Part shown: one piece after another, positions 14,582 to 43,143 of the stretch
How the letters are laid out: the number at the start of each line of letters is the position of its first letter
Numbering within the stretch: position 1 is the stretch's first letter
Origin: Botryllus schlosseri
Taxonomy: Eukaryota
Direction of reading: 5' to 3'
Length of the DNA: 64,000 bases
Assembly (NCBI GenBank): GCA_051294905.1
Contig: CM119371.1
Location: 1,304,001-1,368,000, forward strand
The notes under the pieces: generated by a model
Told to the model about the DNA's origin: nothing
The model's input: the letters and a program-made list of their open reading frames with translations, nothing else
The model's database searches: none
Translations under genes and position numbers: made by a program

Positions 14582-17500
14582 CAGCAGGGGTAAAACCCGC
14601 TCAGACGCCAGCCGGCCACACGCCAAACGCCCTGCGGCTGAGTCTGTACGTGGCGTCTGGCGTGTGAACGAATTGAAACGCAGACTGGCGGCTGTATTGC
14701 TACATGACGTCCGGCGTGTGAATGGGTTGAAACGCAGATTGGCGGGTGATTTGCTACATGGCGTTCGGCGTCTGTAATTTTGAGACGTCGTTTTAGATAT
14801 CGGGCGCATGAACTGAACCAGAATTTTGCATTTCTTTCTGATTCGTGATTGAATTCAATTTCCCGGTTTTTGCGAAATCAGTAATTCTCATATAATTAAA
14901 AAACGGCGTACATCATTCTAATTTGGCGAAGTTATTTCGATTGCTCCAATTGCTGACGATTACCCCTGGCTAGTATCGGCGTCCCGTCTCTCCTGCATCT
15001 CTTTACACTCGCAGCTATCTCATACCTAAGACTGCATACACACATTGAAATGAATGACAATAAGTAACTTTATTGAGATTAACCTACAGTGCAATGAGCA
15101 CAATAACAATGACTAGGTGGTAGCTCTTGCCCTGGGTAGCAACAATCCTTGAATATCCGCCGGTCACCGCCATCACCGATAAAATACTGGACAAATCAAC
15201 TTTGCAATTCTATACCCAATCCTTGATCATCGCATTTGGATTTTTACTGTTGGATTTGTTGCAATAATTTCCTGGTTCCTGGATCGTCCGTGACACGATT
15301 GCCCAATACAAGCCATAGTTGGCAACTGGGAGATTCCATAGGATGTGTGTGTGCGTCTAAGAATCGTATGTATAAAGGGTATAGTGGTGAAATTGCCCAC
15401 GGAATTACATACTGTTCTGCGAGGTGTTCCCACGGGGGAGCTTCCTTAAACTGTCCCCCTCAAATAAATGTTTTCTGGCTACGCCCTTGTTTGTATTGCC
15501 TTTCAATTTTTCTCTCCGCCGACACATTGAAATTAGAATTCTTGCTCTTCTTGCGCAGTGGCGGATTGCCACAGACGTTAGCTAAGTAATACTGAAATGA
15601 TCCGCGCCGCCCAAGAAGTTTAGCGCCGTGGTAGTGACTTCTGTGTTTTGCCCCGCGTTGCATAGCCTACACTTCAATCGACGTGGTAGAATGTAGCCTA
15701 GAAAACAGACCATTGCATGAGCAATGGGAACTTGGTTCAGAAACCTTACCATATGTCCCCAGCTGTCCTAAAATATTACAGCTATATCGTCAGACAACAC
15801 TTCTTGGTCTGACGATTTCATATGTATGCATGCATATCAAAATGTCATTCTATAATATTACAATGTCAAACTCGAAAATTGAGAGGGCAAAGGTGCCCCT
15901 GAATTCATGTACTTCACTTAGTGACTAAGGGTGGAGATCATAGAGGTTACTTAAGTTACGGTTACCAAGTAACGCATGCTTTAGTACTGAGTAAAACTCA
16001 ATTGCGGATCATAAAGTTACCTCAGACCTAAAATGAGTTTTAACGGCACTCAAAACGTCCGTAACTCACGTTACGTGTAGTGCTAACTTGAGTGCGCGGC
16101 ATGTAGCTTTTTTGGTACAGTGAGAGCTCAGACGTTATAGTTGGTCAATCATCCAAGGCCTCACTACTCGTCACACGGCAACGGCGTCAGCATAGTTATA
16201 CCACAATGACCTACAGTAATGCAAACAATGACTTGGTAGCTACTGTGGACTTGCTAGGCATCGTGATGCGAATACATTTACAAGTATCTTAAGACGATGG
16301 ATTTTAAACGGAGTATTGAATAAATTGCAATTTGTAATTGAGATATAAAATTCGAAAATATTAGACGGACCAACAGGAAACTTGCCATGGACCAGAGGTT
16401 GAGATGAGAACCACTGGTATAATGAATTGGATACTAGATGATGAATATCAGGATAGCACGGGGTGTATCTAATCTGTATATGTGGACGTTTGGCGTCGGA
16501 TATATCAGCTATCAAGACGCCACGGGCTGCATCTAATTTGTGCTTGTCGATTGTCGCCGTTTGGCGTCTGAAGGGATATATCGACTATCAAGACTCCATC
16601 TAATTTGTACATGCCAACGTTTGCAGTCTGATATATCAACTATCCAGACGCCACGGAGTGCATCCAACTTGTATATGTCGACGATTGGCGTCGGATATAT
16701 CAGCTATCAACACGACACTGGCTGCATCTAGTTTGTGCATGTTGATTGTCGCCGTTTGGCGTCTGGACGTATATATCGACGATCAAGACGCCACAGAACG
16801 GATCTAATTTATGCATGCCGTCGTTTGGTGTCTGATATATCAACTATCCAGACGCGACGGGTGCACCTAACTGGTATATGCCTACGTGTGGCGTCGGATA
16901 TATCAACTGTCAAGACGCCACGGGCTGCATGTAATTTGTGCATGTCGATTGTCGCTGTTTGGCGTCTGAACGGATATATCGACTATCAAGACGCCACCGA
17001 ATGCATCTAATTTGTGCATGCCGGCGTTTGGAGTGTGATATATCAACTATCAAGACGCCACGGGTGCATCTCATTTGTAGCCTACATGTCGACGTTTGTC
17101 GCATGTTAGGGCTATGCCGTAAATACGTGGAATTTAGTTGATAGACAGCAAGCGCTAGCTAGCTATGTCATACGAGGATGAATGAATAGGCTATTTCTAA
17201 GAAGTCTGAAGGACAGAATGTAAGTGGTCTATATAAAAAAAAACTTGTAATTCTGGGCTGACGATGTGTTCTACAAGGTTAGTCGAGTGTACTAGCACAG
17301 CATGATCACACAACTTTCAAAACTGATTTCGCATATACTGCAACTATTTTCTTCAGCAGTAACGATTTTAATAAGGTGCGTAAAGTCCTCAGCTCAAGTC
17401 ATTGATGCCAATGCTAGAAGAAAACTCGGGCAGCAATCAAACAAATAACTGTAGCAGACATCATTCCGCTATCGACGAATATAATAATGCAGTGATCAAT

Positions 17501-17796
17501 CCTTATTATCCACCAGCCTTGCTTTCCCTAACTTTGCCAATAAATCAGATCCTGTACACGAGACGCTGTGCAACTGGCTACCTACACACGGCACGGCGGT
17601 CTCAAAATTGCCAGAAGCCGAACGCCATGTCGCAGTATACGGCGTCCTAAAATGCTGGACGCCAGACGCCATAAAGCACTTCATCTGCCAGTCTGCGTTT
17701 CAACCCATTCACACGCCAGACGCCACGTAAAGACCCAGCCGCAGGGTGGCGTTTGGCGTGTGGCGGGTTGGCGTCAAGCGGGTCTAACCCGGTCTC
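14582..17796. mobile_element. Non-autonomous DNA element with ~200-bp inverted arms and asymmetric termini
   Basis: TSD aaaagacg (14574-14581, 17797-17804); arms 14582-14790 and 17580-17796 are inverted copies built of GGCGT/ACGCC repeats; ends CAGCAGGGGT... and ...ACCCGGTCTC. Confidence 0.8.
16445..17105. repeat. Minisatellite, ~60-75 bp units in ~200-bp trimeric higher-order repeat
   Basis: About ten units of gatatatcaactatcaagacgccacgggtgcatctaatttgtgcatg...cgtttggcgtc; the longer variant recurs every third unit. Confidence 0.9.
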
Positions 17797-20700
17797 AAAA
17801 GACGAGCGCAAAGACTGAAATTGTTGAACAGCGAAAATTTGTTGACATGTCAAGTAGAATTTTGCATTAGTGCGGCTGCAATCATAGTCCGTGAAATCAC
17901 CATCAGTGAAATAAGCATGGTATTTGTTGAAATTAGCATGCGAGTTTTGGATTCCTCACCAATTATTTTAGAGTGCGCGAAAATCAAGCGGGCCAAGTTG
18001 GAAATACGCTGTGAATTTCTTGCGATACAACGATTCAAGTACCTATATTTCCTAGCAACTGCTTTAGGCGCGACAAGATTTTAGATAGTAACTTTTTCGT
18101 ATATCGATCGGAAATAGATATGTTCAAAGACTGTATAATAATTCCTCTTTACTTACATAACATGGGACTCAATCCACGTCGCAGCAAGTTAGGTCTGAAT
18201 AAACAATGGCGCATACATAGCTTTCAGTAAATGATATATATGTTGGAACGAGTCAACGTGCGATATAATTTGTTTGTTTCCGTTGATTTTGCAACACTGC
18301 GTGGATACGAACGGATTGGCTTTGTTAAATATGTACTATGGGACAAATCCAAACACTACAGTGTTGACTTCACGGCGATTCATAATTCGTAACGTACATC
18401 GGTGAAGTCGAAGCTGCGAATACAGAATGATAAATTTACTAACTAATTGAATGCTAAACTGAGTATCACTGTTTGTGCTGGCGGTGCGGTTGCCTTTATA
18501 AATCCAAAGATTTTTTTAAATATTTGAAAAAATTACTCGCGGACTTTGATGGGTAAATGCTCACTAACAATCAAAAGAAACATCATATTGGTAAAAGTTT
18601 ATCTGTTAATCGTATAGGATAGTTCGCATTATTCCAGATGGTCGTTGCGTTGACGCACATTTATGATCTCCGCATAGAGCATGTTTACACGACCCAAATA
18701 ACGGAATCCAAGCAATATCCCCAGTAAATGCAATATCGCTCTGTATGTCGTGGAGGCAGAGAAATGTAATTGATAGAGGTAGTTTGCCTGCAGTAGCACA
18801 ATTGGGGATTTCAATAATCAGTGGCTGTTAACATGGGTTCGATCGAACACTGGGATTCAACGAGCCTGTTTCAGGGGTACGTCGTGACTGTATTCTGAAA
18901 TATTAACACTTAGACCGACTTATGATTTATCAGCAAAATATATTTGTAAAGATATCCGAACCCAAACTTGTGTGGGGCTCGCGTGATGATAAATAACGAT
19001 CAGCGTGTTTGACGGTGGATCTAATGATGTCATCTGTGTGTAACATACACATAAAAATATATTTTTCCTGGGGCTGCTTTTTCAAGGGAATCATTCCACA
19101 CGACACTGGTTTAATTGCGTGCATCTGATTTTTACTATCCTAAAGCAGAATAGCACCCGCGAACTCGTTATACCTAACCTACATGTCGTAAGCTTCGAAA
19201 TCTTAAATAAGGATTTCAGGGCGCGTTACTTGATTAGAGGGACAGTGCATACACGTATCATCAGAAAAATTAAGCTACTACTCCCAGATTATAGCTGCTA
19301 ATACTTTTCCGAATTGAACTAGCCATTAAGATATTTATCCAACGTATATGGACCGTTTATGAAAATGGTTTCATACCTGTGGTTGTCAAGCTCTGTCAAT
19401 GCAGCAATCGCTTGCGCAATCATATAATGTAACAAGGATAGTTGTCAGAACAATATAATTGAGCATATCCTCCGTCACTTTCATATAGATTGCCAGCCGC
19501 ACTATTTCTTACTGTAAATAAATATGATAACCGACTATAGCCTTGACTCATCTTCTGATTGATGATACGCCTTTATTCGCTACTGTACTTGCCGAATGCT
19601 GATACGTATTGCCACAATGGAAAGTCTCAACTCAAGGTACGCTCTGCAAGATTCGTTTTTAGCGCAGAGGTATCGCAATATGATAGTCAAGTGGTTCATC
19701 GGTCGCCTTTTCTATAGCTAGCTGACCGTTATTTATTTGCAATCTAGTAAACATTCCGTTCTCTAAAAAAACTATAGGAGAGCAATCGACGTTCTGCCCA
19801 CATGACGTGCGATTTGATACATAACGTAGGCATCATCACCGAACTATACAACGCTCTGCGATTCTCTTCATTCAATATTTCTTGAAATCTAATCAATGAA
19901 TCGGCAATTCAAAATGTTGACCAATATTTTCAAGTAACTGCATTACCAATTGCAGCTACGACTATATGAGCACTTGGTCGCTAGCTATTACCCACATAGA
20001 CGCCGCGATGTAAAATTTAACGTGTACTACAAATAGCCGACGGTGGAACATGGAATGGGTAAATTATGTACGTAAGCGGGGAAGTATCGGAGACGGTATT
20101 GTCATGGATTGCATTAGGTTCAGGGGCATCTATGCCAGTGTTTCTCAAACTTTTTCCGACCGCGTACCACTAATTAGTTTAACTTCACGGCGTAGGCCTA
20201 CCATCTGGATGCCAAAATGACCTCTTAATAGTCAAATGTACCAGTAATATTAGTAATTGGCGTTCATAATAGATCACAACACCAGTGAATAATTACAAAG
20301 GCGGATTTAATTTGCCAAATACAACTGTTTCCTCCAGACCAGATGGTCCAGGAGGCGTATAGCAATATTCATAACTCATAGGCAAATATGTCCATATTCC
20401 AGGCTCACTTGGACGATCTCTTCCATTTAATGGCATGATAATGCATTGGTATGGGGCTATCACTTCATGAATGTAATCGATTGCGATTACGATTACTTCT
20501 GAATCACGCGATTACGATAACGATTACGATTACAGCAAAATCAGGAAGTAGTCGAATACGATTATATTGGAAAAGTAATCACGATTACATTTATTTTGCT
20601 TCTTAGAACTAATCTTAAGATATATTGGAATACAATATAAGAATTGCAATGAAAAGGCCTAATGGGATAACTAATTTATTCAAATATGAGACTTCATTTG

Positions 20701-20869
20701 CTTGCTACTTCATAATGTGCCATTGCCCAACTTTATAGGGCAAGATTTATCGCATAAAAAAGGTTCACAGTGCAGAACCTACCCAGTTTCGTTTGTGAAC
20801 GTGAACCTCTAAATTTCTGAGGTTCACACACAGAACGCGAACGTGAACCTCACGTTCACACCATCCCTA

Positions 20870-22108
20870 CTAGATAAGTCTTCCCAAAGATATCACGAAC
20901 TGTAGCCTACAACATTATCCAAGATCGTTGGATCTGTTAAAACGTCCTTCAACTCCCAATTTATTCGGCTCAATCGCGCAGCATGATGTAGCTGTCTCCT
21001 TTGATGTTGATATCTCATACAATGTAACAAAAAGTGCTCTACAGATTCTTCTGCATTACATTGCTGACATAGTGGAGTCTGAGAACAACGGATCTTATGC
21101 TAGGCTTACCATACGTCCTCTTTTAAGAGGATTTGTCCTCTTTTTTTGACTTTTTTGAAAGTGTCCTCGGAGGACGCCCTTTTGTCCTCTTTTTTGAAAA
21201 TTTAGGTCAGATTTAGAGCAAATTGCGAGTGATACACCGCAAAGTAGCACAGAAGTGACGGTCCGGCGGATATTTCGAAGTGAAAAACGGTGAATTTAGC
21301 TCTGAGCGAAAATATGACTTTTTTTTAGTCAACCGACCACAAAGTGGGAAAAATTCACCGGTTTTTGAGAATTCTATTCCGGTTTTTGCATCTTGCAAAT
21401 TTCTGAAAAAATGTCCTCTTTTTACATTTTCAAAATATGGTAAGCCTATCTTATGCAGATGTTGATTCAATCTGCAATGACCGCTTCTTAATCTCAGTAG
21501 AATTACGTCTCTTCGCCGTGTTCCAATTTGAGCTATATCGTCGGTAATTGATGGTCGCAGATTCTTATACGCTCTTCCGGTCTCAGTGCTTCGGTATATC
21601 TGATCCCATTCACATCTACAATGATGTCATAAGACGGACACGTTGGACAATGCTTCACGCAGAGGTAATAAGTGATTGTTCCCTTCATCCCTTCTTGACG
21701 CAGCGTCTTTGGCTAATTGATCGGCGATTTCGTTACCACGAATACCAGCATGCCCAGGTATCCAGATGAACGTGATTGATTTATTGTTATTTTGAAGTTC
21801 TGCAATATATTCTAATATATCGTTCACATGTAGTCATTGACCAATCCATGATTGGCGATGGCGGTTAGGGCACTCAAACTGTCACTTACTATAGCAATTT
21901 TACTCTCCGTGTTCCTTTTAACCCACGATAATGCATCTTTGATGGCATGCAACTCTACATAAAATATTGAAAAACATTTAGGAAGCTTCGCAGACAATTT
22001 TACATTCAGCCGAGGAATGTATACGGCATAGCCACATCCTGACGATGTCTTCGAACCATCCGTATATACAAGTGTATGATCACTGTAGTCCGAGAAAATA
22101 TGGTCAGC
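20870..22108 (-). mobile_element. LINE fragment (I/Nimb group): RNase H plus C-terminal CCHC finger
   Basis: VYTDGSKT...ELHAI...IVSDSLSAL...FIWIPGHAGIRGNEIADQLAK; after removing the MITE, LRLRSGHCRLNQHLHKIRCSQTPLCQQCNAEESVEHFLLHC. Confidence 0.92.
21101..21448. mobile_element. hAT (Blackjack-like) MITE inserted in LINE
   Basis: TIR TAGGCTTACCATA; exact TSD tcttatgc; TGTCCTC repeats. Confidence 0.92.
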
Positions 22109-22605
22109 ATTTTAAATCTCTCTTAATGTGAAATTATAATTAAATGTGCACGGTAGCCTACGTAATGGCATGTATATTCCGTCTTATGTTCCGAATACGA
22201 CATCCATACGCAAAGCCATATTACTAGAATTTTGTCATTCGAACTTATCTAACTGCGTAATACTATAAATAATATATTTGATTATATGATGCGAACATTC
22301 ATCGAACTTCATTTGTAAATCAATCCGATTCGTTCAGTTGATGATGAGTTAAGCGATTGTTAAACAAATGACGCGGCTGCAACTTTTGAATCGTAAAATG
22401 AGCTCCGTACACGTAATAAATGTTTGGCGTCGACTGATATATGGTTTGTTTGTTTTAGTTGACTGTGCAGGTACCTTGGGGTGCATTGGTCGTCACGTTG
22501 CACATTGTAGGTACTGTCAACGCACTTGATTTGACGCACCGATCATCTTCATTTAATAATCCTTGGTTGCGGAATGCTATTCCTGAGTCTGTTTACTTAT
22601 CCCAC

Positions 22606-22824
22606 TGTGCAACTTTGCATTTATTCATAGGTTAAATACCATAATAAATGATCAAACTGAAATATAAAAGAACAGTTCCATCGACTAGCCTAATCACTAT
22701 TGCTCCAACAACTCATAAGACGTGGGTGCTAATACATACATGCACGCACGTCGCACAATCACAACAACAAGAAGACGAGATCGCTCATGCGTTTAGAGAG
22801 ATAGTAGTAAGAGATAATCACACA
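22606..22824 (-). mobile_element. 219-bp solo LTR
   Basis: TGTG...CACA termini; 5-bp TSD cccac; empty site in paralogous copy at 30169-30173. Strand inferred from AATAAA on the minus strand. Confidence 0.8.
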
Positions 22825-23091
22825 CCCACAAGCTCGCAGTCCCTTACAAATTTCAAAGGTGACTTACCCGAGTAATTCTGGTTTGCATTACGCACCATAA
22901 ACTTATCTTGCTTCCACGCGAACACAGACAAAAAGAAACGTTCAACCAACATCTATGTGCCAAAACGATGATAAGGCATTGATCTTTGTGGTGATGTTGT
23001 ATTAGCAAAACGGGTAACGTGGAATGCAATATAAAATTAGTTGCTGGCAATCATGTGCGTCATATTGCAAATGAGAAGCATATTGCACGTC

Positions 23092-23349
23092 TGCGAGCGA
23101 GATGGTGTAATGGTGATGCGTCCGGCTTCTTGATCGGTAGGTCGTTGGTTCGATCCCCGATCATGTCAGGCCAAAGACTCGAAAACTGGTATCCGCGGCT
23201 ATCTTGCTAGGCGCTCAGCAAATACGGATAGCATGGAGGAGAAAAACGGGACTGTAGGCTAGATGATCTTACTATAAAGGAGGTCGCATCTCCGTCGTCA
23301 AAGCTTTTTGGTGGTGCGGGCGAAAAAGAATACCATATCTCTCTCTCTA
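23092..23349 (+). mobile_element. tRNA-derived SINE
   Basis: A/B boxes; same body and (CT)n tail as 2010-2278. Confidence 0.85.
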
Positions 23350-23635
23350 AAACGTCACAAATAAATTGCCACGATAAGATTGATTAGATGAATTAATACC
23401 AGGGGTTCCCAAACTAGGCTCGCGACTCCAATGAGGTCGCTTTTCTGTTCTATGGTGTCGGGTAGACAAAAATTAAATACCGATGGCTACTACAAGAATG
23501 TCAATTAAGAGGATGCTATCGGCGGCTCATTTCTGGATATTTCAGTTCATTGTTTTAAATGGAAGAAAAAACGACCTACGTGATATGCGATCCGGGAAAA
23601 CAAGGTATCATATCTGTCGAAGCGTCATTTTAAAG

Positions 23636-24971
23636 CAGAGGTCTCAAACACGCGGCCCGCGGGCTGCATGCGGCCCTCGAGATCATTTTGTGCGGCCCGT
23701 GACGGCATTTTGGATTTCGAAGTATTCGACAATATTTAACTACCAATTTTTTTTTCAATCAATTTACAATTCGCTATAAAATACTCCAGAAGCCAGAAAC
23801 TACTCATCAAACCTCACAATTACATCATTTCCAACAGTTACGTCTAAGTGGAGGATTACCTATTACGTGACATTACTTGTTTATGATGGTTAAACAGGAC
23901 CCGTTGATGAATCGAACTCCGACTCAATGGGTGATGAAATAAAAAATGACTCGAGTTGAGTCGCATCAAAAGATACAATCAGAGAAGGAAAGGAAATGAC
24001 GTAGTTTATTTTTGTCCTTGATGTTTTTGCGGCATATACACCGACTCATGATACACATACACACGGACGCTTAACCATTACGCTATCTTGTCGGTCTTTT
24101 GTGACACGGAACGCTGTGACTTGGTACAATCACGGACGCAACAAACTATCAAACTGGTATGGAAAATGGTAAAATATCAAAACGGTCGTAGCTTGCGTTT
24201 CGTAGCTTATTTAAATATCTAGGCAGGACGGTATGGCAACCATTGGCATTATGTTGCCCGGTTGAGGTATAGTTGGTTACACCCGGTGTCATCATGGGAA
24301 TCTGTACCTATCGCAAATTTTATTGTTGCGAGTATATAAAGTAGTCGTAGCCTACGCTTCACAGCTGTAACACAAATGGATTCTTGGGCGATTGGACATT
24401 TTTATTGCTATGACACAGTAATCATTATACTCAATTTGTAAGTGATCTGTTCAAATAGTCGAAGCTAAATATAACGCTGATTTAATTTGACTTGGTAATG
24501 ACATGATCAATAGCCTAGTTATCAGGAGTATACCCGAGACCCGGATTAGGCTGTACTTCTCAAATGTTCTGATATCATATCAATCTTTGTAAAATTTTAA
24601 AATTCTCCCTATGTAATTGCGTCATGTCAAATGTCCGCTAGCTGCGAAATTATAAGCCAACATATTTTGCGATGTCCTGATGCATTTGTACTCTCACATG
24701 GTGTCTTCAACTACTTATTTTTGACAAACTATGCCAAATGCAGCATCAATTTTATTCAGATATCTAAAAATCTTATTTTTTCGCGCGAGGCGTGAATTCA
24801 CAATAGTAAATCAGCTTTTTATGATGCGTGTGGAATATCAGTCTGCAAGGTCCCGTCAAATAAGGCCTACTGAGAAATACATTGAATTCCCCTATTATTG
24901 GTGCTGCGGCCCGCGGCGCCATCAAAAATTAGGAAATTGGCCCGCTAACACGTTTGAGTTTGAGACCTCTG
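23636..24971. mobile_element. hAT (Charlie/Buster-like) non-autonomous element
   Basis: TIR CAGAGGTCTCAAAC; exact TSD ttttaaag; GGCCCGC subterminal motifs. Confidence 0.92.
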
Positions 24972-25499
24972 TTTTAAAGGGTCATCTAATATAACACAAG
25001 GGTTGTGTATTGTTATTAGAATTAAGATTAAATTGTTGGGATCATGAAAACCAATACGACGGGAGAGCCATGTGGTGAAAGTATGATACAAACACGGGAA
25101 ATGTGTGAACGGCGCAGTCGGCTAGGTCAGTCGTGTATCGTTATCTGTATTTCGCGTGACGCGAATTATCAAATAAAATACTTGATCAATTCGATTGGAT
25201 ATAGACAGAAAACGTCCCGATAGTCCTAAATATGTTGCTATAGTATTGATTGAGTTTCTTAAACTCAAGGATGGAGGTGAACGAGTTGCTTATAGTTTCT
25301 CTCACACATGCGGTGATTACTTCATCAACGTATTTAATTGCGATTACACCATAATCTCATTTACGATTATATCGTTAAAGGCACGGTGCATTCTCAATAT
25401 GATGCGGCTCGTATTGAAGATAAAATCTTTAAATAATTCTAGGCCGCAACCAATTTCTTCAGAAAGCTTCCGTAATGAAGCTGCAGCTAAACGAAAATT

Positions 25500-25760
25500 C
25501 CAACTACCCCCATTACTCGCCAGTTGAATTAGTATTGTCTATAATTGTGGCGCGGCTGCGAGTCTCTGTATTGCTTAACCAGTTGCGAACTTGCTGGCAC
25601 GATATCTTCACTTGGACTTGCTCGACGCGATCTCCATTGCGATTTCTCGCCAGCAAGAATTTTTTATTATGGCTATCCGACAGTCCACGCTAACATGGTG
25701 TTGTCTATCGCGGCGGATTCAAATGTTGAATAAACAATTGCGCAATATTGATTGCTAGGC
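25500..25760 (-). pseudogene. Possible Myb/SANT-like (Harbinger ORF1-type) domain relic; duplicate at ~31640-31910
   Basis: Frameshifted IKNSCWREIAMEIASSKSK / SCQQVRNWLSNTETRSR resembles the KxxxWxEIA...xQVxxxW pattern. Confidence 0.35.
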
Positions 25761-26029
25761 TACCTGATTGAAGCATTTCCATATGAAAGAAAATGAGCCT
25801 GAAATTCTCTCCTAAAGAATGATTGTACTCGCAGACAAACATATTGATACCTGCTGTCTGTATACCACTTATTCCAGATATTGTGAGTTGCCGATTCACA
25901 GAGCAGCTGTGCTATGATTCATATCTGTATCAAACCATGACTGCATGATGTGCATATGATGCCGCTGGACATTAAAGGTAAAGTTTTAGGGTTTGAATAC
26001 TTGCTAAATTTTGCCCCGATTCACTGTGC

Positions 26030-26165
26030 CATCCCTGAATGTTGAATGTCAAGCGCCAACCTACTCATATCAGTTTTACTAATCAGTTCTGATGTCTGAC
26101 ACGGTCGGGGATTGAGACACTACATAGCGGCCAAGCACCTGGACGTGCAATCATTATGCTATCTT
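26030..26165 (-). mobile_element. Old degenerate SINE (duplicate at ~32595-32730)
   Basis: Reverse complement gatagcataatgattgcacgtcc...caatccccgaccgtgtcag...ggcgcttgacattcaacatt resembles the SINE head and central domain. Confidence 0.5.
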
Positions 26166-30692: not shown

Positions 30693-32010
30693 GAAACGTC
30701 ACAAATAAATTGCCACGATAAGATTGATTAGATGAATTAATACCAGGGGTTCCAAAACTAGGGTCGCGACTTAAATGAGTTGGCTTTTCTATTCTTTGGT
30801 GTTGGGTAAACAAAAATTAAATACCGATGGCTAGTATAAGAATTAAGGGGATGCTATCGGCAACTCATTTCTGAATATTTTAGTTCATTTTTTAAATGGA
30901 AGAAAAAACGACCTACGTGATATGTGATCGGGTGTGCCATGTGGTGAAAGTATGATACATACACAGGACATGTGCGAACGGCGCAGTCAGCTAGGTCAGT
31001 CGTATATCGTTATCTGTATTTCGCGTGACGCGAATTATCACATAAAATACTTGATTAATTCGATTTAATATAAATAGAAAACGTTCTGATAGTCCTAAAT
31101 ACGTTGCTATAGTATTGATTGAGTTTCTTAAGCTCAAGTATGGAGGTGAACGAGTTCATAATTGCAAGCTTGGTATTGCTGCGCACATATTTGCCAGCTC
31201 TAAAACACAAGTCGCGACTCGCGAGTAGGTTTGGTCGAAGGTGCTGACCATTTTCAATTATCAGCACGCCAAATTGAGAGGTTTGATCGCGGAACATTTT
31301 GAAATCGAAATTTTGGGTCGCTACCAAAATAACTGATCATACGTGAACTTGTGTAGGCTATACACACTGAGCAGTGTGAACAATGGGCCAACTTCACGTA
31401 CTCGCCATTCGCATGGTTCTCATTTGTTTTTCTCCTTTGTAAGCTTATAGTTTCCCTCACACATGCGGTGATTACTTCGTCAACGTATTTAATTCCGATT
31501 ACGATTGCACCAAAATCTCCTATATGATTATATTGTTAAAGGGACAGTGCACTCTCAATATGATGCGGTCTCGAATTGAAGATAAAATCGGTAAAAAATT
31601 CTTGGCCGCAACTATTCTCCTCAGAAAGCTTCCGCAAAGAAGCAGCGGCTAAACGAAAATTCCAACTACCCGCATTACTCGCCAGTTGAATTAGTATTGT
31701 TTATAATTGTGGCGCGGCTGCGAGTCTCTGTTGCTTAACCAGTTGCGAGCTTGCTGGCACGATATCTTCACTTGCACTTGCTCGACGCGATCTCCATTGC
31801 GATTTCTCGCCAGCAATAATTTTTTATTATGGCTATACGACAGTCCACGCTAACATGGTGTTGGTTGTCGCGGCAGATTTCAATGTTGAATAAACAATTG
31901 CGCAATATTGATTGCTAGGCTACCCGATTGAAGCATTTCCATATCAAAGAAAATGAGCCTGAACTTCTCTCCTAAAGAATGATTGTACTCGCAGACAAAC
32001 ATATTGATAC

Positions 32011-32408
32011 TAGAGGTCGACCGATTATCGGCCCCGATATTTGGAACTTTCTCGAATATCGGTATCGGCCAATCCAGGCCGATATCGCGACCGATATTTT
32101 ATATATAACTACAATCTACCTTTTCTGAACTGATCTGCAATTCTGTATCATGTTTTGATTTTCGGGTTATCCCAAATTTCAACGAATGTTCACAATTAAG
32201 CAATAAGTCTTTTCGATTTCAGTTTTCTCGTTTGTTGTTCACCTTTCTGTGGCATGAACAAGTGCCACCTTGCCTAATATATAATATTTTTGGCGAACTA
32301 GTTCTCTGCTCCTTCCATATTAATATCGGCCTATGATATCGGTTATCGGCCGTGAGAGCGTCGAAATATCGGTATCGGCCTGTAAAAATCAATATCGGTC
32401 GACCTCTA
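32011..32408. mobile_element. hAT (Ac-like) MITE
   Basis: TIR TAGAGGTCGACCGAT; exact TSD attgatac; empty site at 25843-25850; TATCGG repeats. Confidence 0.95.
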
Positions 32409-35400
32409 ATTGATACCTACTGTCTGTATACCACTATATTCCAGATATTGTGAGTTGCCGATTCACAGAGCAGCTGTGCTATGATTCATATCTGTATCAA
32501 ACCATGAGTGCATGATGTGCATATGATGCCGCAGGACATTAAAGGTAAAGTAATAGAGTTTGAATACTTGGTAAATTTTGCACCGATTCACTGTGCCATC
32601 CCTGAATGTTGAATGTCAAGCGCCAACCTACTCATATCAGTTTTACAAATCAGTTCTCATGTCTGACACGGTCGGGGATTGAGACACGACATAGCGGCCA
32701 AGCACCTGGAAGCGCAATCATTCTGCTATCTTGTCTATTAGGAGTTTACGCACCTGTAATAACCTCGAGCCGATGCATTAAGGCAGTTCATTTTAACAAT
32801 GAGTCGGAAATTCCATCGTTACATATGTTAATATCCAACGATTATAGGTTTATTTCAATTACCACTCACGAATGTCAGCCTAACATATTCGAGTTTATTT
32901 TGAAACACCGTATTCTATCGGTCAACGTTCCTGTTTACTACCACCTAAAGTCATAACGTGCCACTGGATGTTTGCTTAATTCTGATTGCCTCAGTCCTAA
33001 ATTACTCCATAAACTGTTATCGCAGGATTGTCGTAAATGCGACATCTAAAGCTTTTATTGCCGATTGCCGTGTACCATCCACATTATGAGCAAGACGATG
33101 CTCAACTAAAGTAAACATTGTTTGTGATAGCGTTGTATCGAGAATCATGTTGCGTGTTGTTCACAAGACCTCATATTAAACTTTGGACGGCCAATGATGA
33201 CGTCGCAAACGCATCCAGCACGACTAGTTTGACGAGAAATTTCGCTTTCACGAAATTTTGAGCGTTACTGTTATCGGTCCGCAATACATTTTATGTCGCA
33301 GTGATAAGCGATTATCTCGCGTACTTGTGTGTGTCCCTTATGTAGTCAAACCAGCAAATAGCTGCTCTGTGATGACAAAAGTGGAGGGGGGGTAGTGCTG
33401 GGGCCAACTATTATCAATTCTTGAGCCGTTATGCGCATATTATCTACGTTCATTTCCTGTCCTGAAAGAAACAAGTGTGCACCGAGGCTGCTGTGATTTC
33501 GATTGAAGCTGTTCTACTGACATTGATCTTACCTGCTACTGACTAAAATAAACCACGTCAAATTGCAAACTGTTTATTCATCCAGACGGGGACAGGAGGC
33601 AGTGTAAGTAGGCCTATATTAGTAAAAGACGGCTAAACTACGGAAACACCGTAATCCAGTGATTACACAGTCAGTTATTAATCTGACGCGACTATCAATA
33701 TATGGTAGCTTCGTAAACGGCTATGACAGGTTTGCCGTTTTTGTGACTAGACTTGACTCGCGTCAATTTATAAAATATGGTGTATAACTCGACTCGATTT
33801 GCGACAATTTGTGTATTGACTCGACTTGTACTCGAGTCAATGAGCCTAACTCGACCAAGCCATAAAACCCGAGACTCGGATGGCCAAGACGGGCATTTCA
33901 TCGTAACTTCGAAGAATAGTAAGCTACCACAACATTATACTTGAATATCAACCAAACGAAGTTTTAAAACGCGAGTTAAGCAGGATTGAGCTTGATAATG
34001 AACTGCGAACACAATGACTTGGACTCAGACTCAATGATCAACACTGTGACTCGACTTAAGCTTTTGAACCCTGAATATGGCTCGGTGCTGAATTGAATAT
34101 GACTCGACTCGTATCGAGTCAAAATTATGAAAGTAGAATTACCTTGTGACTCAGGACCTTGCAACTTGGTAAGCACCATGGGACATTGCTTACGACCTAA
34201 GTGCGACAATTATTGAAGCGGCCTTGAACGAAAGGTACTGCTGATTTCGAATATAAACATTTTAATCTGGTCTGGGCACTGTAACGCGCCCCAAAATTAC
34301 CATGACATTGATAAAAATCGTCATAGTTTAGCCGCGAAAAAATGATCACAAAAATCAATCAATGTGGCGTTTCAATTGTTTGCTACAAAGCTCGAATACA
34401 GGGGTTGTTACCAAAAGTCCCAAGGTTCCGAGTCCCAAGTTAATCTTACTGTATAGTTTTGGCTCGAATGATTAGAGTCATTTTCAATTCATCCCCGCAT
34501 GAAGTCCGAGTCGTTTTGCGGAGGGTCGAATCCGTGTCCAAGTCATTGCGTTCACAGTTCAGTTTCGAGTTCATGAAATGTTTAAACCATATTTTTACAA
34601 CTATGCTTGACTGATATCAAATGCCTCACATTCATTATATGCTGATTTTCATCATTTCTAACAGGTTTTGGCCCTAAATTGATGTACGAGTACTGATAGA
34701 CGAAATACCGATAATAATGCAACTTTACTATTTTGGAAAGTTGCAATGAATTGCAGTATTGGCTGCTAGAGTTCTGAGTCATGTGACTTGAACATGACTC
34801 GAGTTTACTGGAAAAGGCGTGAGCGTATTTTGCAACGAGATCACCAAACAATCTGTGTCTGTCAGTTGCGTCTTCCTTTGATTTCCTTGGCTCTCCCCCG
34901 AACGCTGTCTATTCTCGCTTGCCTTTGGCACTCAATCGTTTTTCGTGACTTTCCGTTGCTTGGACTCGCTGTTGAGTTTTCTGCTACGTCGCACTTGTAC
35001 CACAATCTCGCTCTTTTTGGTTTCGTATCATTCATCAAAGCTGGCTGTCGTACTGACTTTAATTGAAATAGAAGTATAGTCGCATCTGAGGAATATGTAG
35101 AGCGAATGTTTTTCCCATTCTGGAACCCAGAGTTTTGTAACGTTCTGTCTTTTCCTGTGAGCGGCTGAATATTCCGATGACTTTCTTTCAAAACTGGGCG
35201 GTTTGCGTTTGATTTAATATCGTTTCATTTGACGAGTCAATTTCCTTTAGTTTCCGCTTTGTCAGAAATTTCGCTTTACGCAGTCCTTTGAATTCCAAAA
35301 CTTCCCTAAAAGGTAAAAATCGGTTAATTTGAGCGGGAAAAATAGCCCTCGTATCACAGTAATTGATATATTTTCTAAAATATTGGACTGGGCAGAATGA

Positions 35401-35478
35401 TCAAAGGACTCGCATCTGAAAGCGGTATTACCTCTACCAATTCAACTCAACTAGAGAAATGATTCGTCTCCTTACAAA

Positions 35479-35960
35479 TAGGGCTGTCCAAGATCGAGTA
35501 CGTTGGTGATTCGATACTGAATCTCACATTGGGCTTCGAGTCCGGTGGAGTATTCGAGTATCACTCATTATGTGGAAATACCAGCATGTACAATGTCAAA
35601 GTATATATATATACCTTTTACGCTAATACAGAGAATATCATGTCTGTACTTATTTCATCCACAATACCTATCTCATTACAATTTGTGACAATGCTGTGGG
35701 TTGATCATGACTTCATAAATATGCTAATCCCAATATCATTCGTAGCTTTGCACTACATGTTCCGTGGGCTCCGATACGGTCAGTCAAGAGTTCCATGTTC
35801 CCACAGTAGAAAACACCGTGATAATTCTCGTTATCCAATTACATTTCATTGGCAAGGACCATATAATATCAGCACTCCGAAAACTTCACTACTCGACTCG
35901 AATCATTAGAAATATTAATCGGAGTAGATTCGAGTATTCGTATCATTGTGCCCAGCCCTA
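35479..35960. mobile_element. hAT MITE, family of 10853-11379
   Basis: tagggctg...tgtgcccagcccta; internal similarity; TSD degenerate. Confidence 0.8.
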
Positions 35961-37202
35961 CTAACTACTATGTGTTAATTTATTACCTAAATTTATCGTT
36001 TCGATCGTATTTCCACTCTGGAAGCCTTGGAACTGTATTCGTCACATGACATCATACGAAAGCTTTTGTATATAACTACGTTAGCGGAAAGGAAACATCT
36101 GTAAACATGCAGCATTCGCAATGAAATAGGCATGATCGACAAAAAAACATGGCTTTTTTAATGTGACGTAGATTCGGCATTATATTCTTTGTAATTGCAT
36201 GAAAACTACATATTTGCACTATCTACATTTCCTATACCACTATGATGTCACAAGTAGTGGTACTCAACTCGACTCATAATATTCGATTCATAGTCAAATC
36301 ACTAAGCCACTCGATTTTCACAATCCTACCAATGAATACTACAAGGAGATTGTCAGTAATCATCAACTCTCACAAAACATCATGTTTCAATCATGAGTGG
36401 CAGTATCTCAAAATCTATTCGGGAGGCCAACAAGTTCTAAATCACATCAAGAGCGTATTCTTTCACATACTATTTCAGGCTCCACCGAATATATTATTAT
36501 TGATGGTATGCAGACTTGTACAAGCTACCAATCTAGTTAATTGAAGGTCAACTGACAACTGACTAGTTGCCAACAACTAGAAGACATACGTTATCGTTTG
36601 ACGTGAATCGTGATCTCACCGTTTTATCGTGTGATGCAGCCATTCCTACCTCAGAGTCATCACTGCAAAGACTGGCGTGGCCAGGCTGTTAGGAGTTTAC
36701 AGCCTCCCAATTTCAATTAGGACAAACTACTTCGTAAGGACAGACAGTTTCAAACAGAAATGAAGATAAGTAGCGCAATTCTAATGTTATGTGGGAAAAC
36801 ACCTAGTTTGCATATGATAGGTCAAATTTGTTCAAAATTAGGATTTTTTAGGTCAAAAAATGTTAAAATTTTGATTTTTTAGGTCACAATCTTTGTTTTT
36901 TTAGGTAAAAGAATCACCCTAGTCGAAACCATCCATGTCATCAAACTCTCCGTTGGGATTGCCAGCATTCTGATTGCATTTGTGACATGACGATAATGGG
37001 GCACGAAATTTTTCATTATCAAAAAGGGGGCGTGTCAAAGAAAATTTGAGAACCGCTGTTCTAAATCTAATTGAAGTTGCGGGTTTTGCAAAGAGAGTAC
37101 GTATTTTGGAAATCTAGTAGTTTGTTGAAGTCTGGGTACAGCACCTGAATAGTGGTTTGAAGGTACGGTAAGCATGAACGAGTCTACCAACGTTTTCCTT
37201 AC

Positions 37203-37304
37203 CATTCAGCGAGTCGATACAAGTTGCCACTTTGTCGGAAGTGAGGTCTTGAATTGGACGAGAGCACATCCCTTGCACATGCCAATGGCGGAATTGATGG
37301 CGAT
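37203..37304 (-). pseudogene. RBM28: RBM28 RRM3 RNP1 exon relic
   Basis: cag|IAINSAIGMCKGCALVQFKT(frameshift)SDKVATCIDSLN|gtaag. Confidence 0.85.
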
Positions 37305-37693
37305 CTGAATAGAAGATGGCAACTTCTGCTTCATTATCCCAAGCGGGGTCGCCTTAACTTTTGGTGGCCTCGCCATGACTCAACATATCTATCACTGTTT
37401 CAATTCAACAGTGAAAATCTATTAATAGTTTTAAGTTCTTGTTCTATGTTCAGTTTTGGTACAGTAAGTAGGCGTGCAGTACTGGCGTTCAACGGACGGT
37501 GTTCAGCCAGATTGCTTTGTGTCTGAAGCTAGCTTAAAATTGCTTTCACCTTATCATATTAGTCAGTTGGTCAAACTGATACTGAGATGCCAACCATTAA
37601 ATATTGAGGCAAATCTATCCATAGCGGCAAGTTTCCACCTCTGATATGCAAGCGTGTTTGTGAAAGCACAGCCTGTCGTACTGGTCTGGCTGA

Positions 37694-38509
37694 CAGTGTT
37701 GAAATGACTCGGGTTATGTCTTGACTCGAGTCACTTTGCAAAAAATGACTTGACTTGACTTGACTAGGCGTTTCACAAATGTGGATTAACTAGTGACTGG
37801 AAGCAAAATTTACGAGTCAATTTCAAGTCATCAAGAAATCGGTGTTGCTAAAATCGCTGAATACGTTACAATTGTTCGGACTGTTCTCGATACGCTGTTG
37901 TGACTGGTGAGAGCGACAAATCATTCATTCAATCATTTTGCGTTTTACTGAACGTCCATTATTCTATAACAAATATATCGACCGCTTACAGTGTGCGTTG
38001 TCGCATTAGTAGAGTAATATAATAACAACAAGGTCAATGATTGGTCAAATATTGGTCAATGATCATTGGTGCTAGGTGATAACCTTAACCAAATCTCTTA
38101 TTTGATCTAGCATTCAGAATTGAATTCGAATATACTTTACAAGTTTATATTACTAGTCAAGCATTGCCGTAAACCTAATTTATATCTCATGGATATGTAG
38201 TTAGGTAATGCTTCATATCAATTCGTTTCCGCTATCCAAGGTTTTGTGTTCACTATTTTGGGGGATAAATTAATGACTGTGGGTATACAACGCATTTTTT
38301 TCATGTATATTAATCTCTATATTCATCCCTCGGTTTAAAATAAATGACGACTCAATCTGAATTTCGAACAGCTAGTAAAATGCAATGTGATGCCTTGTAC
38401 TTCGAAAAGACAACTTGACTTGAATTGTGACTTGACTTGACTCGAGCCAAAATGCGCAATGAATCAAGATGACTCGTGACTCGAAGGTAGTGACTTGATC
38501 GAAACACTT
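37694..38509. mobile_element. hAT-type GACTCGAGTC MITE (paralogue 59786-60642)
   Basis: cagtgttg...aaacactt; TSD ctggctga/gtggctga; paralogue has exact TSD ctggcgga. Confidence 0.8.
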
Positions 38510-38990
38510 GTGGCTGAAGAGAGAGACATGGCATATTTCGCAGCATTTGCCCATGTCTCAGCAACTACATGATGCTACAATAGAGTTGTGCTACACACAG
38601 ATGGATAGCTTCGCGCAGCATAGAGGCAACTAGAATGGAACATGGTGGTATTGAAAAATAATTTATTTGCAGATCCATTATGGTAGTTTTCTGAGTAAAA
38701 TATGGCTAGTGACAAATTTTTTTCCACAATTTCATGTTTAATTTGATAGTACATCATCTTTAAAGCGCACGACCATTGAAAAAAATCATTTTGGAATATT
38801 TTTGTACCACAACATTTCTCAATAACCGTTAAACATTATTCCCTATCGAAAAACAAAATAGCACGTAAATGCTGGTTTTATTTTCGTTTTAATTGGGGTC
38901 ACTCATTATAAAGTTGCCGACCGGTGGACTAGAGTACGTCAGCCCCACAATACTGACAATTGTTTTGGCTGAATATTGGACCGCACATAC

Positions 38991-39135
38991 CTGGTCGTAC
39001 GAGTCCGTCCCTGCCGAGATACAAATTCCTTTTGCCATCCTTCTCCTTCTTTTGCTTCTTCTGTTGATTTATCATCCTTTCACGTCCGTCCACAGCTTAA
39101 ACAACTCGAATCTGATTCCCGTCCAGGTTGTTGCC
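38991..39135 (-). pseudogene. RBM28: RBM28 RRM3 end/linker exon relic
   Basis: GNNLDGNQIRVV*AVDGRE...GKRNLYLGRDGLVRP|gtatg, compared with RBM28 LDGRQLKVDLAV...RNLYLAREGLIR. Confidence 0.88.
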
Positions 39136-39923
39136 CTGCAATGGTAGTCAGATAGTCGCAAATATGTTTACAGAAAGACTTGTAAAATAGGGAGGACTTT
39201 TTTCAAATGTCATCGGCTTTATTGTCAAATCGTCAGGTTACCTTAAAAACCTCGCCCAAGAAATTTGACTCCATTCCAACCAGTAGATGCCGAGGTCAGT
39301 CTAATTGGTCATTTTTTAATAGTAGTATTTACGGTGACTAATTTCGTCATACCGACATGACCCAAAATCATATTCCAGGTATGCCCGAAGAGGCAGGAAT
39401 GTCTTTTCCACTTGTTTTGATCTTGACAAGGGCCTATGGCGGAGTTTGGATGAAGACATCGCCAGTAAACGAAAAAAGATATGACATGGATTAGCTGGAA
39501 ATTAGTCCACGTCACTGAAATAGACACGTTAAAAATCAATTCATGTTCGAGTCACTCAGGTACTTGATTTTGACAACCCTACTCATGACTAGTACAAGGA
39601 GATTGTCAGTGGTCATCAAATCTCACAAAACATCATTATTCAATAATGAGTGGCAGCATCTCTAAATCTATTCGGGTGGCCAACAAGTTACAAACCCCTT
39701 AGGAGTGTATTTTTTCACATACTTTTTCAGGCCCCGCCGAGTATAATATTATTTACTGGTATGCAGACTTGTGTAAGCTACCAATCTGGATAGTTGAAGG
39801 TCAACTACAAACTGGGTTTTTGATTAGTTCAAGTTGTGGATTTTGAAAAGTGAGTAGTTTTAGTTACAGTACCGCATTAAAAAACTAGTTGCCAATAACT
39901 GGAAAACTCGCGTCATCGTTTTG

Positions 39924-42900
39924 GAGACGGACTTTCAACATTCCCGTGGCCGCTCACTGGCCACGGATTTTTTTGTGGCCGGCCACAAATATCCCGTGGC
40001 CGGCCATGAAAAGTGCTATTTCATGGCCGGCCACAGTGAATTTCATGGCCGGCCATGAAATTTCGCCGTGGCCGGCCACGAAATGTCCTTGGCCGGCCAC
40101 GAAATTTCCTTGGCCGGCCACGGAAAACTCGTTTTCGTGGCCGGCCATGAAATTGATTCATGGCCGAATTTTCATGGCCGGCTGTAATATACCAACTTAA
40201 TATTGAATATCAGTACTGTCCATGACCCAATCGTGGGTAAATGTGTGATCAATTATGTTCTAATATGGGCGTACAGTCAATAGAACTAGGTGTGAGAGAG
40301 AGTTTAACTCAGTTTATAAGCATTTTCACCCGAAATAACAGAAAAATAGCGATACAATGAAACGATAGGAAGAAGTCGAAACGATCTGGCATAGTCTCTA
40401 TAATATCAATAAAAAACACACAAAATGATGTAAAGATACATTAAAAGGGGATATACCCACTAAATGAAACAGGAAATAATGGTATAAAAAGCTAGAAGCA
40501 ATGAAGTAAAAACTGTACCAAAACTAGTAACTGATGGTGAGTGTTGATTTGGATGTTTTTTTTATATAGAAATAGACCCGAATATTCGGCTGACACTCGT
40601 CAGCAACTGTATAGAATTGGAAAGAACAATGTGCACCAAACATATGTCCGAAAATCTCTATCAGCTCCCCAAAAGCTGTGAAATTCACATGTCATTCTGT
40701 GGCCGGCCACAGAACAGCTCGGAGCTCACTGTGGCAGGTGCTTCCCCCGTTCTGATATTAATTTTATATGGTAAGATGTGCATTGTGCAGTTGAAAATTA
40801 TTGTATTGCTGGTTATATTTTGTAAATATGCATACCTGCGATTCATTTAATAAGAGGCTGATAATATCCTTCATTTTCAACCATGTTTATCGTTTATGAT
40901 AAGTCTGCGATGCGATGTTATAGGCTACATATATATTTTATCATGCAGTTTAAGGATGTGGGGGCAGTTTATAATCTTTCGTGAATTTCCCTGATTAATT
41001 TATGAATAATACAATACTGTACTGGAAATTTGTCTTAATTCAGTGCAGATTTGTTCGATTTACGCTCAAGTAGACTCGACTATACCTCCTCGAATGCATA
41101 TGTATGTTTCATCGAGATACTTGATCGGTCAATATTCGGTCATTTTACCTGTTTTTATCGTTCTCAGTACTGAATCCCGTAATCATAGTACCCAGGCGAA
41201 ACAATCAGGGAATCAAAGAACCACAAATGTGTGGAATATACTCTTTAAGTTCCAGAAAAGCTGTGAAATCCACATAACATTCTGTGGCCGGCCACAGAGC
41301 AGCTCGCTGTGGCCGGTACTTCCTCCGATCTGATATCTCTTTCCAACGGTATAGATAGGATATGAAGTTGCAGACAATCAATAGTTTGTTATCTTTCGTA
41401 TAGCTGAATAGCTGTGGATTGAATAATGCCAGGCTGATACAATCCTTCTTTTCTGTATCAGGTCTATGACAAGTCCGCGATATACGGTTATATAGATATT
41501 TGATTATCGTACCGCTATGCATACGACATTCGCTATCCTCAACATCAATGGAGCTTACACTCATTGCTGGACGATGTGAATTGTGTCGATAAATCTATGA
41601 ATATTTACATGCTGTAGCAGCACTTAAACTTGACACACTACAGTTTTGCTGCACATGGGAAAAAAGGAACGATGTAGTATAACCTACCGGTCTATTGGTA
41701 AAATGTGGGGCTTTTGTTTCTAGAAATTCGATTTTGATCACGTTTCCCATCCCATATAATTTGTATGTATATATATATCCATCTAGGTGCCGTTCTTCCG
41801 GGTTGAAACAAATTATGTACTAATGAAATGGATGTCGCAGTCACTATCGATGCTGTGTATTGTATGCCAGAGGATAGGCTACTTGATTACTTTGGTGCAA
41901 GGATCGGTTTGTATCGCATGTCGTTGTTAGATCAAGCTGCTAACCGGTGTGGTGGGCATAAGGACGTAAATGCGTCTACTATATAATCAAATTACTGTTA
42001 TAATAATAGATGACTCCAGATAATTTGCGTCATTTAATGCAGCACCATCGATGGATGAGAAATACCTATGCCGAGCTTGCGTATTGACCAATACTCATGA
42101 TATATTTGTGGTTGATGATCGATTGGAACTTGTCTGTGTCAACAGTGAACATTGATTGGGGGAAACATTCCACATCTTAATGCAGTGCAAATACTTATCG
42201 CCGCGTAAAGTGCATCTGATATCTCGTGCCCCTGGATGTTTACTGTGAAAATCATGTAGGCCTATTGGACACATTGCATTTAACTACTTGTATATAGGCT
42301 AAATGTAATTTATAATCATATCATAATCATATATTCAATGGCTTTCGATTTTGTGAAATTGGCAACGGAATAAACGAACTTTTTGAAGCAAAATATGACG
42401 GTTTCTTTATGTAGAAAAGGAAGGAGAGGCAGGGAGTCAGATTATCTACGTTTGCATCACTAATGGGCTTGGGCGATGGGGATGCGAAGAAACTTCAAGG
42501 CTATCGAGTCTGCACCACAGTTTTTCCGCTCCACGCAATCCCAGTGCGTTGAGTGCCTGCTGGTGTGGAAGCCGTGGAGAACAGTTTTAATGTAAAGTGG
42601 TTTATCTGACCGAGCAATAAGATGCACGCTCTAACATTACTCCATCAATTATCTATAGTCAATAATCTATATGATTCTGTGTTAGTTTACAGAGCACCGC
42701 CCCGCCAGAGTAATTTTTCAATAGTCGAGGAAATTAAATTATTTCTACAGCGAACACAGAAGGTAAACGCGTGTAAAACCGTGGTAATTTTGAACCCATC
42801 CCCGAACTACTCAATACAGTGGTAATGTAAGTACGTGCAATGTTAGTGGAAGTCGTCTACGAACCTATCCACCAGCAAGTTCGTAGTGCAAATGTAGAAG

Positions 42901-43143
42901 ATCTACTTGAGTGTAGTCAAATTGGATGCAAAGGAAGGATTTTGATACAGCTAGATGCGCCAAAATCACGAACTGGCCATGAACTCGTGGCCGGCCAGGA
43001 TGAATTCGTATGGCCGGCCATGAAATTCACTGTGGCCGGCCACGAGACAACGCTTTTTCATGGCCGGCCACGAGATATTCGTGGCCGGCCACAGAAAAAT
43101 CTGTGGCCAGTAAGTGGCCACGGGAAAGCTGAGACCCCTACTG
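39924..43143. mobile_element. Non-autonomous DNA element with ~200-bp inverted arms and asymmetric termini
   Basis: Exact TSD tcgttttg (39916-39923, 43144-43151); inverted TGGCCGGCCA-repeat arms; ends GAGACGGACT... and ...ACCCCTACTG; joined flanks match an uninterrupted paralogue at 36560-36665. Confidence 0.85.

Follow-up and report, generated by a model that had tools for sequence, protein, structure and literature searches.

Two DNA elements of Botryllus schlosseri with unlike tips are most probably non-autonomous members of two Zisupton-type transposon families

A stretch of 64,000 nucleotides from the genome of Botryllus schlosseri (GenBank assembly GCA_051294905.1, contig CM119371.1, positions 1,304,001 to 1,368,000 of the forward strand), referred to here as the window, contains two DNA elements of about 3.2 kb, element 1 and element 2, each bounded by an 8-bp target-site duplication. 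Both are most probably non-autonomous, internally deleted or gene-less members of two cut-and-paste families, family 1 and family 2, of the Zisupton type (KDZ superfamily). Each element ends in one tip that starts with C (the C-tip) and one that starts with G (the G-tip), and this asymmetry is a stable, inherited property of the families rather than copy-specific decay. The evidence comprises the ends of both elements, the recurrence of the same tip pairing among their genomic copies and a longer relative of element 1, termed L076, which encodes a Zisupton/KDZ-type transposase.

Coordinates, duplications and tips of the two elements, read at all four ends, agree with those given in the original prediction, which was made from the letters of the window alone and stands well above chance. 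The features of the window are as follows, the duplications having been read directly from the sequence.

14574..14581: left target-site duplication of element 1, 8 bp, AAAAGACG
14582..17796, no strand: element 1, non-autonomous, most probably Zisupton-type, family 1, subfamily 1a; 3215 bp, C-tip left and G-tip right
14582..14791, plus strand: left inverted arm of element 1 including its C-tip CAGCAGGGGT; contains GGCGT/ACGCC motifs and a repeat unit of 54 nt
15466..15744, minus strand: decayed relic of the N-terminal C2H2 zinc-finger exon of a transposase in element 1, 64% amino acid identity to the zinc-finger frame P0001
16476..17068: 203-nt tandem repeat, three units, inside element 1, with GGCGT-bearing 22-mers (further copies of the arm motif)
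17605..17796, minus strand: right inverted arm of element 1 including its G-tip, GAGACCGGGT when read inward
17797..17804: right target-site duplication of element 1, 8 bp, AAAAGACG
39916..39923: left target-site duplication of element 2, 8 bp, TCGTTTTG
39924..43143: element 2, non-coding, family 2, probably Zisupton-type; 3220 bp, G-tip left and C-tip right
39924..40190, plus strand: left arm of element 2 including its G-tip GAGACGGACT; contains the palindrome TGGCCGGCCA eight times at a spacing of 21-27 bp
40635..41306, plus strand: two 87-nt direct repeats in element 2 (40635-40721 and 41220-41306), each with one further TGGCCGGCCA
42985..43143, minus strand: right arm of element 2 including its C-tip, CAGTAGGGGT when read inward; contains TGGCCGGCCA five times at a spacing of 21-28 bp
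43144..43151: right target-site duplication of element 2, 8 bp, TCGTTTTG

Read inward, the tips are CAGCAGGGGTAAAACCCG and GAGACCGGGTTAGACCCG in element 1 and GAGACGGACTTTC and CAGTAGGGGTCTC in element 2. The outermost 5 nt of the two arms do not pair with each other in either element, and further inward 14604-14791 pairs with 17605-17775 in element 1 (complementarity 75-93%) and 39935-40104 with 42985-43132 in element 2 (78-90%). The arms, predicted at about 200 bp, measure 170-200 bp, and they are built from short motifs that recur in the interior, as had been anticipated. In the arms of element 1, GGCGT/ACGCC reaches a density of 36-41 per kb as against 0.9 per kb in the remaining window; in those of element 2, GGCCGGCC has a density of 25-30 per kb and is absent from the window outside this element, whose internal TGGCCGGCCA sites lie at 40700 and 41285. 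A search of the window for paired tip-like ends accompanied by an 8-bp duplication recovered element 2 and returned 0 hits in 20 shuffles; its pattern did not fit the G-tip of element 1. Neither element contains a long open frame, both having been checked for open reading frames (ORFs). The zinc-finger relic of element 1 (C1:1319466-1319744, minus strand; E 7.1e-23) carries one in-frame TAG and is also visible as an ORF fragment.

The genome searched is a 495-Mb assembly of 219 contigs, in which the arms of both elements match many places, an arm of element 1 giving about 70 matches at 72-93% identity. Family 1, from which 14 full copies and two longer copies were fetched, has CAACAGGGGTTAAACCCGCT at one end and GAGACGGGGTTAAACCCGCT at the opposite end. 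A genome-wide pattern search that left positions 3-5 free gave 172 matches versus 28 with the reversed control, and in all 100 listed matches a C at position 1 goes together with CAACA and a G with GAGnn, the variants at positions 4-5 of the latter being TA, AC, AA, CA, TC and GC. The C-tip consensus CAACAGGGGT is present at 13 of the 15 C-type ends in one set and at every C-type end among the 100 listed. When convergent plus/minus pairs less than 30 kb apart are taken from the matches listed, 32/33 consist of one tip of each kind. The sole C/C pair (C1:6019983-6028892) has ends that recur at an offset of 4209 bp (6019983/6024192 and 6020879/6025088), suggesting a 4.2-kb tandem duplication that includes part of an element as the source of this pair.

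Family 2 behaves in the same way. Its ends, GAGACGGACTTTCAGCATTCCC or CAGTAGGGGTCTCAGCTTTCCC, were matched exactly over tip plus arm 237 times versus 0 times with the reversed control, and a typical copy is about 3.2 kb long. Heterotypic pairs, with one C-tip and one G-tip, account for 31/32 of the listed end pairs. Among 30 fetched G-ends, 29 begin exactly at GAGACGGACT beside unrelated flanks and one has A at position 1. The only G/G pair (C6:15712357-15719872) was considered as a mobilised homotypic element and rejected; it represents two separate ends, because its flanks, ACTACGCG and AAAGATAT, do not match. Since the tip pairing holds across the copies of each family, the asymmetry is not the decay of two individual copies, and the symmetric consensus tips named beforehand as the contrary outcome are not what these copies present. 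One further family-2 end (C7:3742369-3742396, minus strand) has an arm of the C-tip kind (GGGGT.TCAGCTTTCCC) with the tip GAGTC, and may represent a subfamily with near-perfect repeat arms in which only the outermost bases are unlike.

The tips themselves follow a code common to both families. The original prediction had given it as CAGYAGGGGT / GAGAC, of which the asymmetry stands and the exact C-tip string does not: the G at position 3 is private to element 1, its closest relatives reading CAACA, and the code therefore becomes CA[A/G][C/T]AGGGGT for the C-tip against GAG[A/T][C/A] (GAG[A/T][C/A]GG) for the G-tip. The C-tips are thus CAACAGGGGT in family 1 and CAGTAGGGGT in family 2, and the G-tips GAGAC or GAGTA. 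Relative to the family-1 consensus element 1 has two C-tip mismatches (positions 3 and 11), and its arms are at most 93% identical to those of full copies. Family 1 comprises subfamily 1a (G-tip GAGAC or GAGGC) and subfamily 1b (G-tip GAGTA or GAGCA). When the two tips within a family are compared at positions 1 and 3-5, they agree at 0/4 positions in subfamily 1a, 1/4 in subfamily 1b and 1/4 in family 2, a total of 2/12, as opposed to 6/8 for tips of the same type across families. GAGACGG is identical between subfamily 1a and family 2, the C-tips of the two families agree at 2/4 of these positions with both differences being transitions, and over ten positions each family-2 tip type matches its family-1 counterpart at 8/10. 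The arms of the two families, on the other hand, are unalignable past about position 12.

Since a tip resembles its counterpart of the same type in the other family more than it resembles the opposite tip of its own family, both tip versions would be older than the divergence of the families; most simply, a heterotypic pair was already there before they diverged and was kept. Among the loci L001-L030, the subfamily-1a arm beside the C-tip reads CCCGCT[C/T]AGACGCC in 15/15 cases and that beside the G-tip CCCG[C/T]TAGACGCC in 10/10. A 1-nt indel at about position 21 accordingly tracks tip type, being present in 15/15 C-arms and absent from 10/10 G-arms, so that the ends of this subfamily differ beyond their first 5 nt. 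Conservation of this kind may reflect differential recognition of the two tips; both versions may each be maintained by selection on master copies, in which case the two ends would be non-equivalent at the cleavage site.

The placement of family 1 rests largely on L076 (C1:2955960-2964208), an element of 8249 bp bounded by the 8-bp duplication CAGATGTA, with the tip GAGTA on the left and CAACA on the right. On its minus strand, 11 exon pieces are colinear with positions 5-887 of a profile, 1334 positions long, that was derived from relatives (independent E-values 2e-45 to 2e-3), and tblastn of five relatives against this locus gave colinear matches in the same order (E 1e-15 to 4e-27). Single exons match the Pfam families CxC4 (PF18717, E 3.2e-5), SAP (4e-5) and PHD (1.2e-4), the CxC4 exon scoring 24.2 bits, which is under the PF18717 cut-off of 26.9. 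The motifs GNHWILLV and QNDGFNCG, seen by eye, resemble Ulp1, with no significant profile match at this place. The encoded protein combines C2H2 fingers, a CxC4 cluster associated with KDZ, a core resembling DDE, SAP, PHD and Ulp1-like motifs, and L076 is an autonomous-looking element encoding a multi-exon transposase of Zisupton/KDZ type. P0001, the zinc-finger ORF of shorter family-1 copies, has intact versions of 296 amino acids elsewhere, one of them in L076.

Element 1 shares with L076 the tip core GGGGTTAAAC.CG, the C-tip CAACA (as a family), the 8-bp duplication and arm repeats of the GCC/GGCGT type, and the zinc-finger exon of L076 shares about 60% identity with the relic lineage of element 1. 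The two differ in that L076 has exon pieces across the transposase and a G-tip of GAGTA in place of GAGAC. Long tip-bearing copies encoding a transposase had been proposed as the place to look, with Zisupton/KDZ among the candidates named beforehand, and for family 1 this search succeeded. It also bears on the grouping that had been suggested: two families with unrelated arms and common tip types are retained, while the idea of a distinct, unclassified group is not, as the L076 transposase is of a known type.

A second protein, P0002, is an intronless paralogue of 1222 amino acids, in which CxC4 scores 31.2 bits against the cut-off of 26.9.

L077 3873-7538 = C16:18385272-18388937, minus strand: P0002 ORF, Zisupton-like, 1222 amino acids

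Relatives of P0002 occur in fish, amphioxus and sea cucumber, with E-values down to 1e-186. Across 14 aligned proteins, namely P0002 and 13 relatives, CxC4 is found in 11, the Ulp1 family Peptidase_C48 in 7, SAP in 5 and PHD in 5; P0002 itself has no Ulp1 match. The alignment contains a near-invariant CxCx6CxH, the pattern considered for a SWIM-type zinc finger, and the invariant residues D596, D800 and E905, in which a D...D...E pattern was recognised by eye. A homology search with a 144-amino acid catalytic exon against longer proteins gave no match. Further copies of the P0002 lineage lie at C5:22733660-22737031 and C15:10047541-10049191 (L078); one copy is 97% identical with an open frame of 1141 amino acids, and one is internally deleted and 99-100% identical. 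No inverted repeats were found within the 8-10-kb loci L077 and L078, and the shared DNA runs past both loci, the element being longer than 10 kb; this lineage, considered as a third case for the tip code, gave no ends over that range. Downstream of the P0002 ORF there are arrays of repeats of about 20-43 bp of the TTTACAAATGGGCAAG type.

Zisupton was reportedly first described, from platyfish, by Bohne and colleagues in 2012 (Mol Biol Evol 29:631). It is described with 8-bp duplications and terminal inverted repeats (PMC12730594), and KDZ with CxC4 and SWIM is presented as its canonical structure (PMC11343200). The 8-bp duplication is found here in element 1, in element 2, in 10/12 family-1 copies with both terminal cores intact (where it is perfect), in L076 and in a 27-kb family-1 copy (C10:3643672-3670715, ends in L013 and L026; perfect duplication ATGCGATT); within family 2 it was examined in element 2 only. 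Terminal inverted repeats are present as arms of about 170-200 bp with 75-93% complementarity. A large multi-exon transposase with zinc fingers and CxC4 is present in the autonomous-looking relative L076, and relatives of this protein with a C-terminal Ulp1 (SUMO protease) domain occur in fish, amphioxus and sea cucumber; unlike Zisupton, the window elements themselves carry no transposase.

Two other members of the wider KDZ group have ends that can be set beside these. KDZx1, an active Zisupton-type element of Cryptococcus deneoformans, is likewise described with 8-bp duplications, a KDZ + CxC4 + SWIM protein and ends that are not mirror images, but it is fungal, 6.4 kb long and without detected inverted repeats, while the elements described here have inverted arms of about 200 bp in which only the outermost bases are unlike (PMC11343200). 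Kyakuja has 5'-CA..TG-3' termini without terminal inverted repeats and differs in its 7-bp duplications, the elements here having one G-starting end and long inverted arms (PMC12730594). Unlike ends without terminal inverted repeats in Kyakuja imply that such ends are tolerated in the KDZ group.

Element 2, taken separately, is probably of Zisupton type, because it combines an 8-bp duplication and an arrangement in which phased motifs come after the tip with family-1-like tips that are identically paired. Several observations weigh against placing both elements in Zisupton or against the meaning given to their tips. The Pfam model of the KDZ catalytic domain, PF18758, matched nothing in the genome, a result made uninformative by equally silent control genomes, and it is absent from P0002 (E<=1) and from the families listed (25/26) for the 14 aligned proteins; this model seems not to reach these animal proteins. 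Two of the 12 family-1 copies (L067 and L068) have unrelated, non-matching flanks. No transposase similarity was found for family 2, whether in the window, across 30 loci of the family or within 1.1 kb sampled from a 5.4-kb copy, so the search for a transposase-coding copy with family-2 tips, successful in the other family, came back empty over this range; nor was an autonomous partner of family 2 found in the window, 60 loci and 1.1 kb of the 5.4-kb copy. The tips of element 2 differ from those of family 1 by 2-3 mismatches over positions 1-11. The Repbase rule for non-autonomous elements asks for the same duplication length and allows at most one terminal mismatch over these positions (PMC4455052). 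With regard to the tips, the independent observations amount to only two or three lineages, and descent of a family from a single master copy would already lead one to expect heterotypic pairs in it.

The orientation of the gene relative to the tips differs between the two subfamilies of family 1. In subfamily 1a, the zinc-finger exon, and the catalytic exon where present, reads inward from the G-tip in 17/17 copies (including element 1 and the 27-kb copy; for one copy the tip type was deduced from the start of the alignment only), whereas in subfamily 1b the gene reads inward from the C-tip in 8/8, including L076. The left tip of the 27-kb copy is CAACA and its right tip GAGGC. Its minus strand carries zinc-finger and catalytic exons with stop codons, and nested insertions are presumably present in it. 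Between the subfamilies, then, the interior has opposite orientations with respect to the tips, most likely via recombination between the inverted arms of about 200 bp, and it follows that the tip difference does not encode gene direction.

A mechanism can be proposed in which a transposase supplied in trans would bind the phased, family-specific short motifs of the roughly 200-bp arms, the candidate binding motifs being ACGCC/GGCGT units in family 1 and, in family 2, the palindrome GTGGCCGGCCAC at a spacing of about two helical turns. The transposase would then cut at the conserved outermost 10 bp or so and insert with an 8-bp stagger. Given their unlike arm motifs, the two families would be expected to rely on separate transposase lineages. 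A more far-reaching proposal, advanced tentatively and rather unlikely to hold, is a two-tip rule built into Zisupton, by which an element would need one C-tip (CA..AGGGG) and one G-tip (GAG..GG), paired independently of gene direction. If true, the two ends would not be handled alike by the transposase complex during catalysis, in contrast to the end symmetry assumed for most eukaryotic cut-and-paste elements, and KDZ elements reported to lack inverted repeats could be explained in this way.

The same tips may instead be a neutral legacy, a reading with a considerable though lesser-than-even share of the probability. Among the terminal positions, only the A at 2 and the run of G at 6-9 would then matter to the transposase, the remaining outermost bases would be frozen by descent from one ancestral element, and the ends would be functionally equivalent. 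With few masters per family the counts of 32/33 and 31/32 carry little independent weight, the lineages observed number two or three, and positions 4-5 of the G-tip do vary between subfamilies. Set against this are the greater identity of same-type tips across families than of cross-type tips within one, the sharing of GAGACGG by subfamily 1a and family 2 and of 8/10 positions by the C-tips despite arms that diverge past about position 12, and the indel near position 21 that tracks tip type.

Two further alternatives concern the class of the elements. Element 2 could derive from another superfamily with 8-bp duplications, hAT or P, its likeness to family-1 tips being coincidental. hAT elements, including Ac, likewise duplicate 8 bp and carry, in both arms, short subterminal motifs that bind the transposase, the outermost base of Ac differs between its ends, and many of them start with CAG, as does the C-tip of element 2; the missing family-2 transposase would also suit this origin. 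It is nonetheless improbable, since both family-2 tip types match family 1 at 8/10 positions with the same heterotypic pairing, and the arrangement of a tip and then phased short motifs over about 200 bp is that of family 1. hAT is further characterised by a BED finger, a hAT dimerisation domain and YARNG termini. Neither tip fits the last, the C-tip having A at position 5 and the G-tip G at position 1, and no hAT domain appeared in the Pfam scans of the L076 exon pieces, P0002 and the relatives. That both elements are ordinary Mutator-like elements, in which duplications are of 9 bp or more, with copy-specific decay as the source of the asymmetry, is barely credible and is rejected. Element 1 alone does fit a 9-bp duplication, CAAAAGACG. 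A 9-bp reading needs a C at position -9, which is present, at the chance rate, in 2/10 of the copies with perfect 8-bp duplications, bearing out the duplication length first claimed; in addition, the tips are constant across the listed copies of both families, and Pfam scans of P0002 and of the exon pieces of L076 list no MULE transposase domain. Membership of Zisupton stays the preferred classification of both elements.

Other candidates for an autonomous copy of family 1 were set aside. Loci L061-L074 contain only tandem repeats and the zinc-finger ORF. L075 (C3:38178939-38186881, 7.9 kb; tips GAGAA and CAACA, duplication TCAAAATG) carries a gag/protease piece of a long terminal repeat (LTR) retrotransposon, and owes its extra length only to this inserted LTR-retrotransposon-like piece, in which an ORF pair of 442 and 524 amino acids on the minus strand encodes gag (with a CCHC knuckle) and an aspartic protease. 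Beyond the assembly, 31 public metagenome contigs (L079-L109) contain relatives of the Zisupton-like transposase at 30-61% identity, several of which form groups with 82-99% DNA identity between samples. Inverted repeats were detected in only one of these contigs, and are messy there; the homology breakpoints are not terminus-like, and matches to the tip motif are at chance level.

Zisupton and its KDZ relatives are among the least studied eukaryotic DNA transposons, and their end recognition is undescribed in the literature examined, as far as the texts available extend. Those texts, on Zisupton and Kyakuja/Dileera termini, contain no Zisupton tip sequences and no C-tip/G-tip mismatch, the original description and the Repbase/Dfam consensuses being outside their scope. 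The two elements provide two well-delimited, multi-copy non-autonomous families, one of them with a candidate autonomous source, as well as candidate binding motifs and a clean terminal signature that can be used to annotate non-coding elements easily left unclassified. Should the pairing of C-tip and G-tip not be general, the elements would be ordinary members of a known superfamily; if it is general, it would offer a testable handle on how transposases tell the two ends of an element apart.

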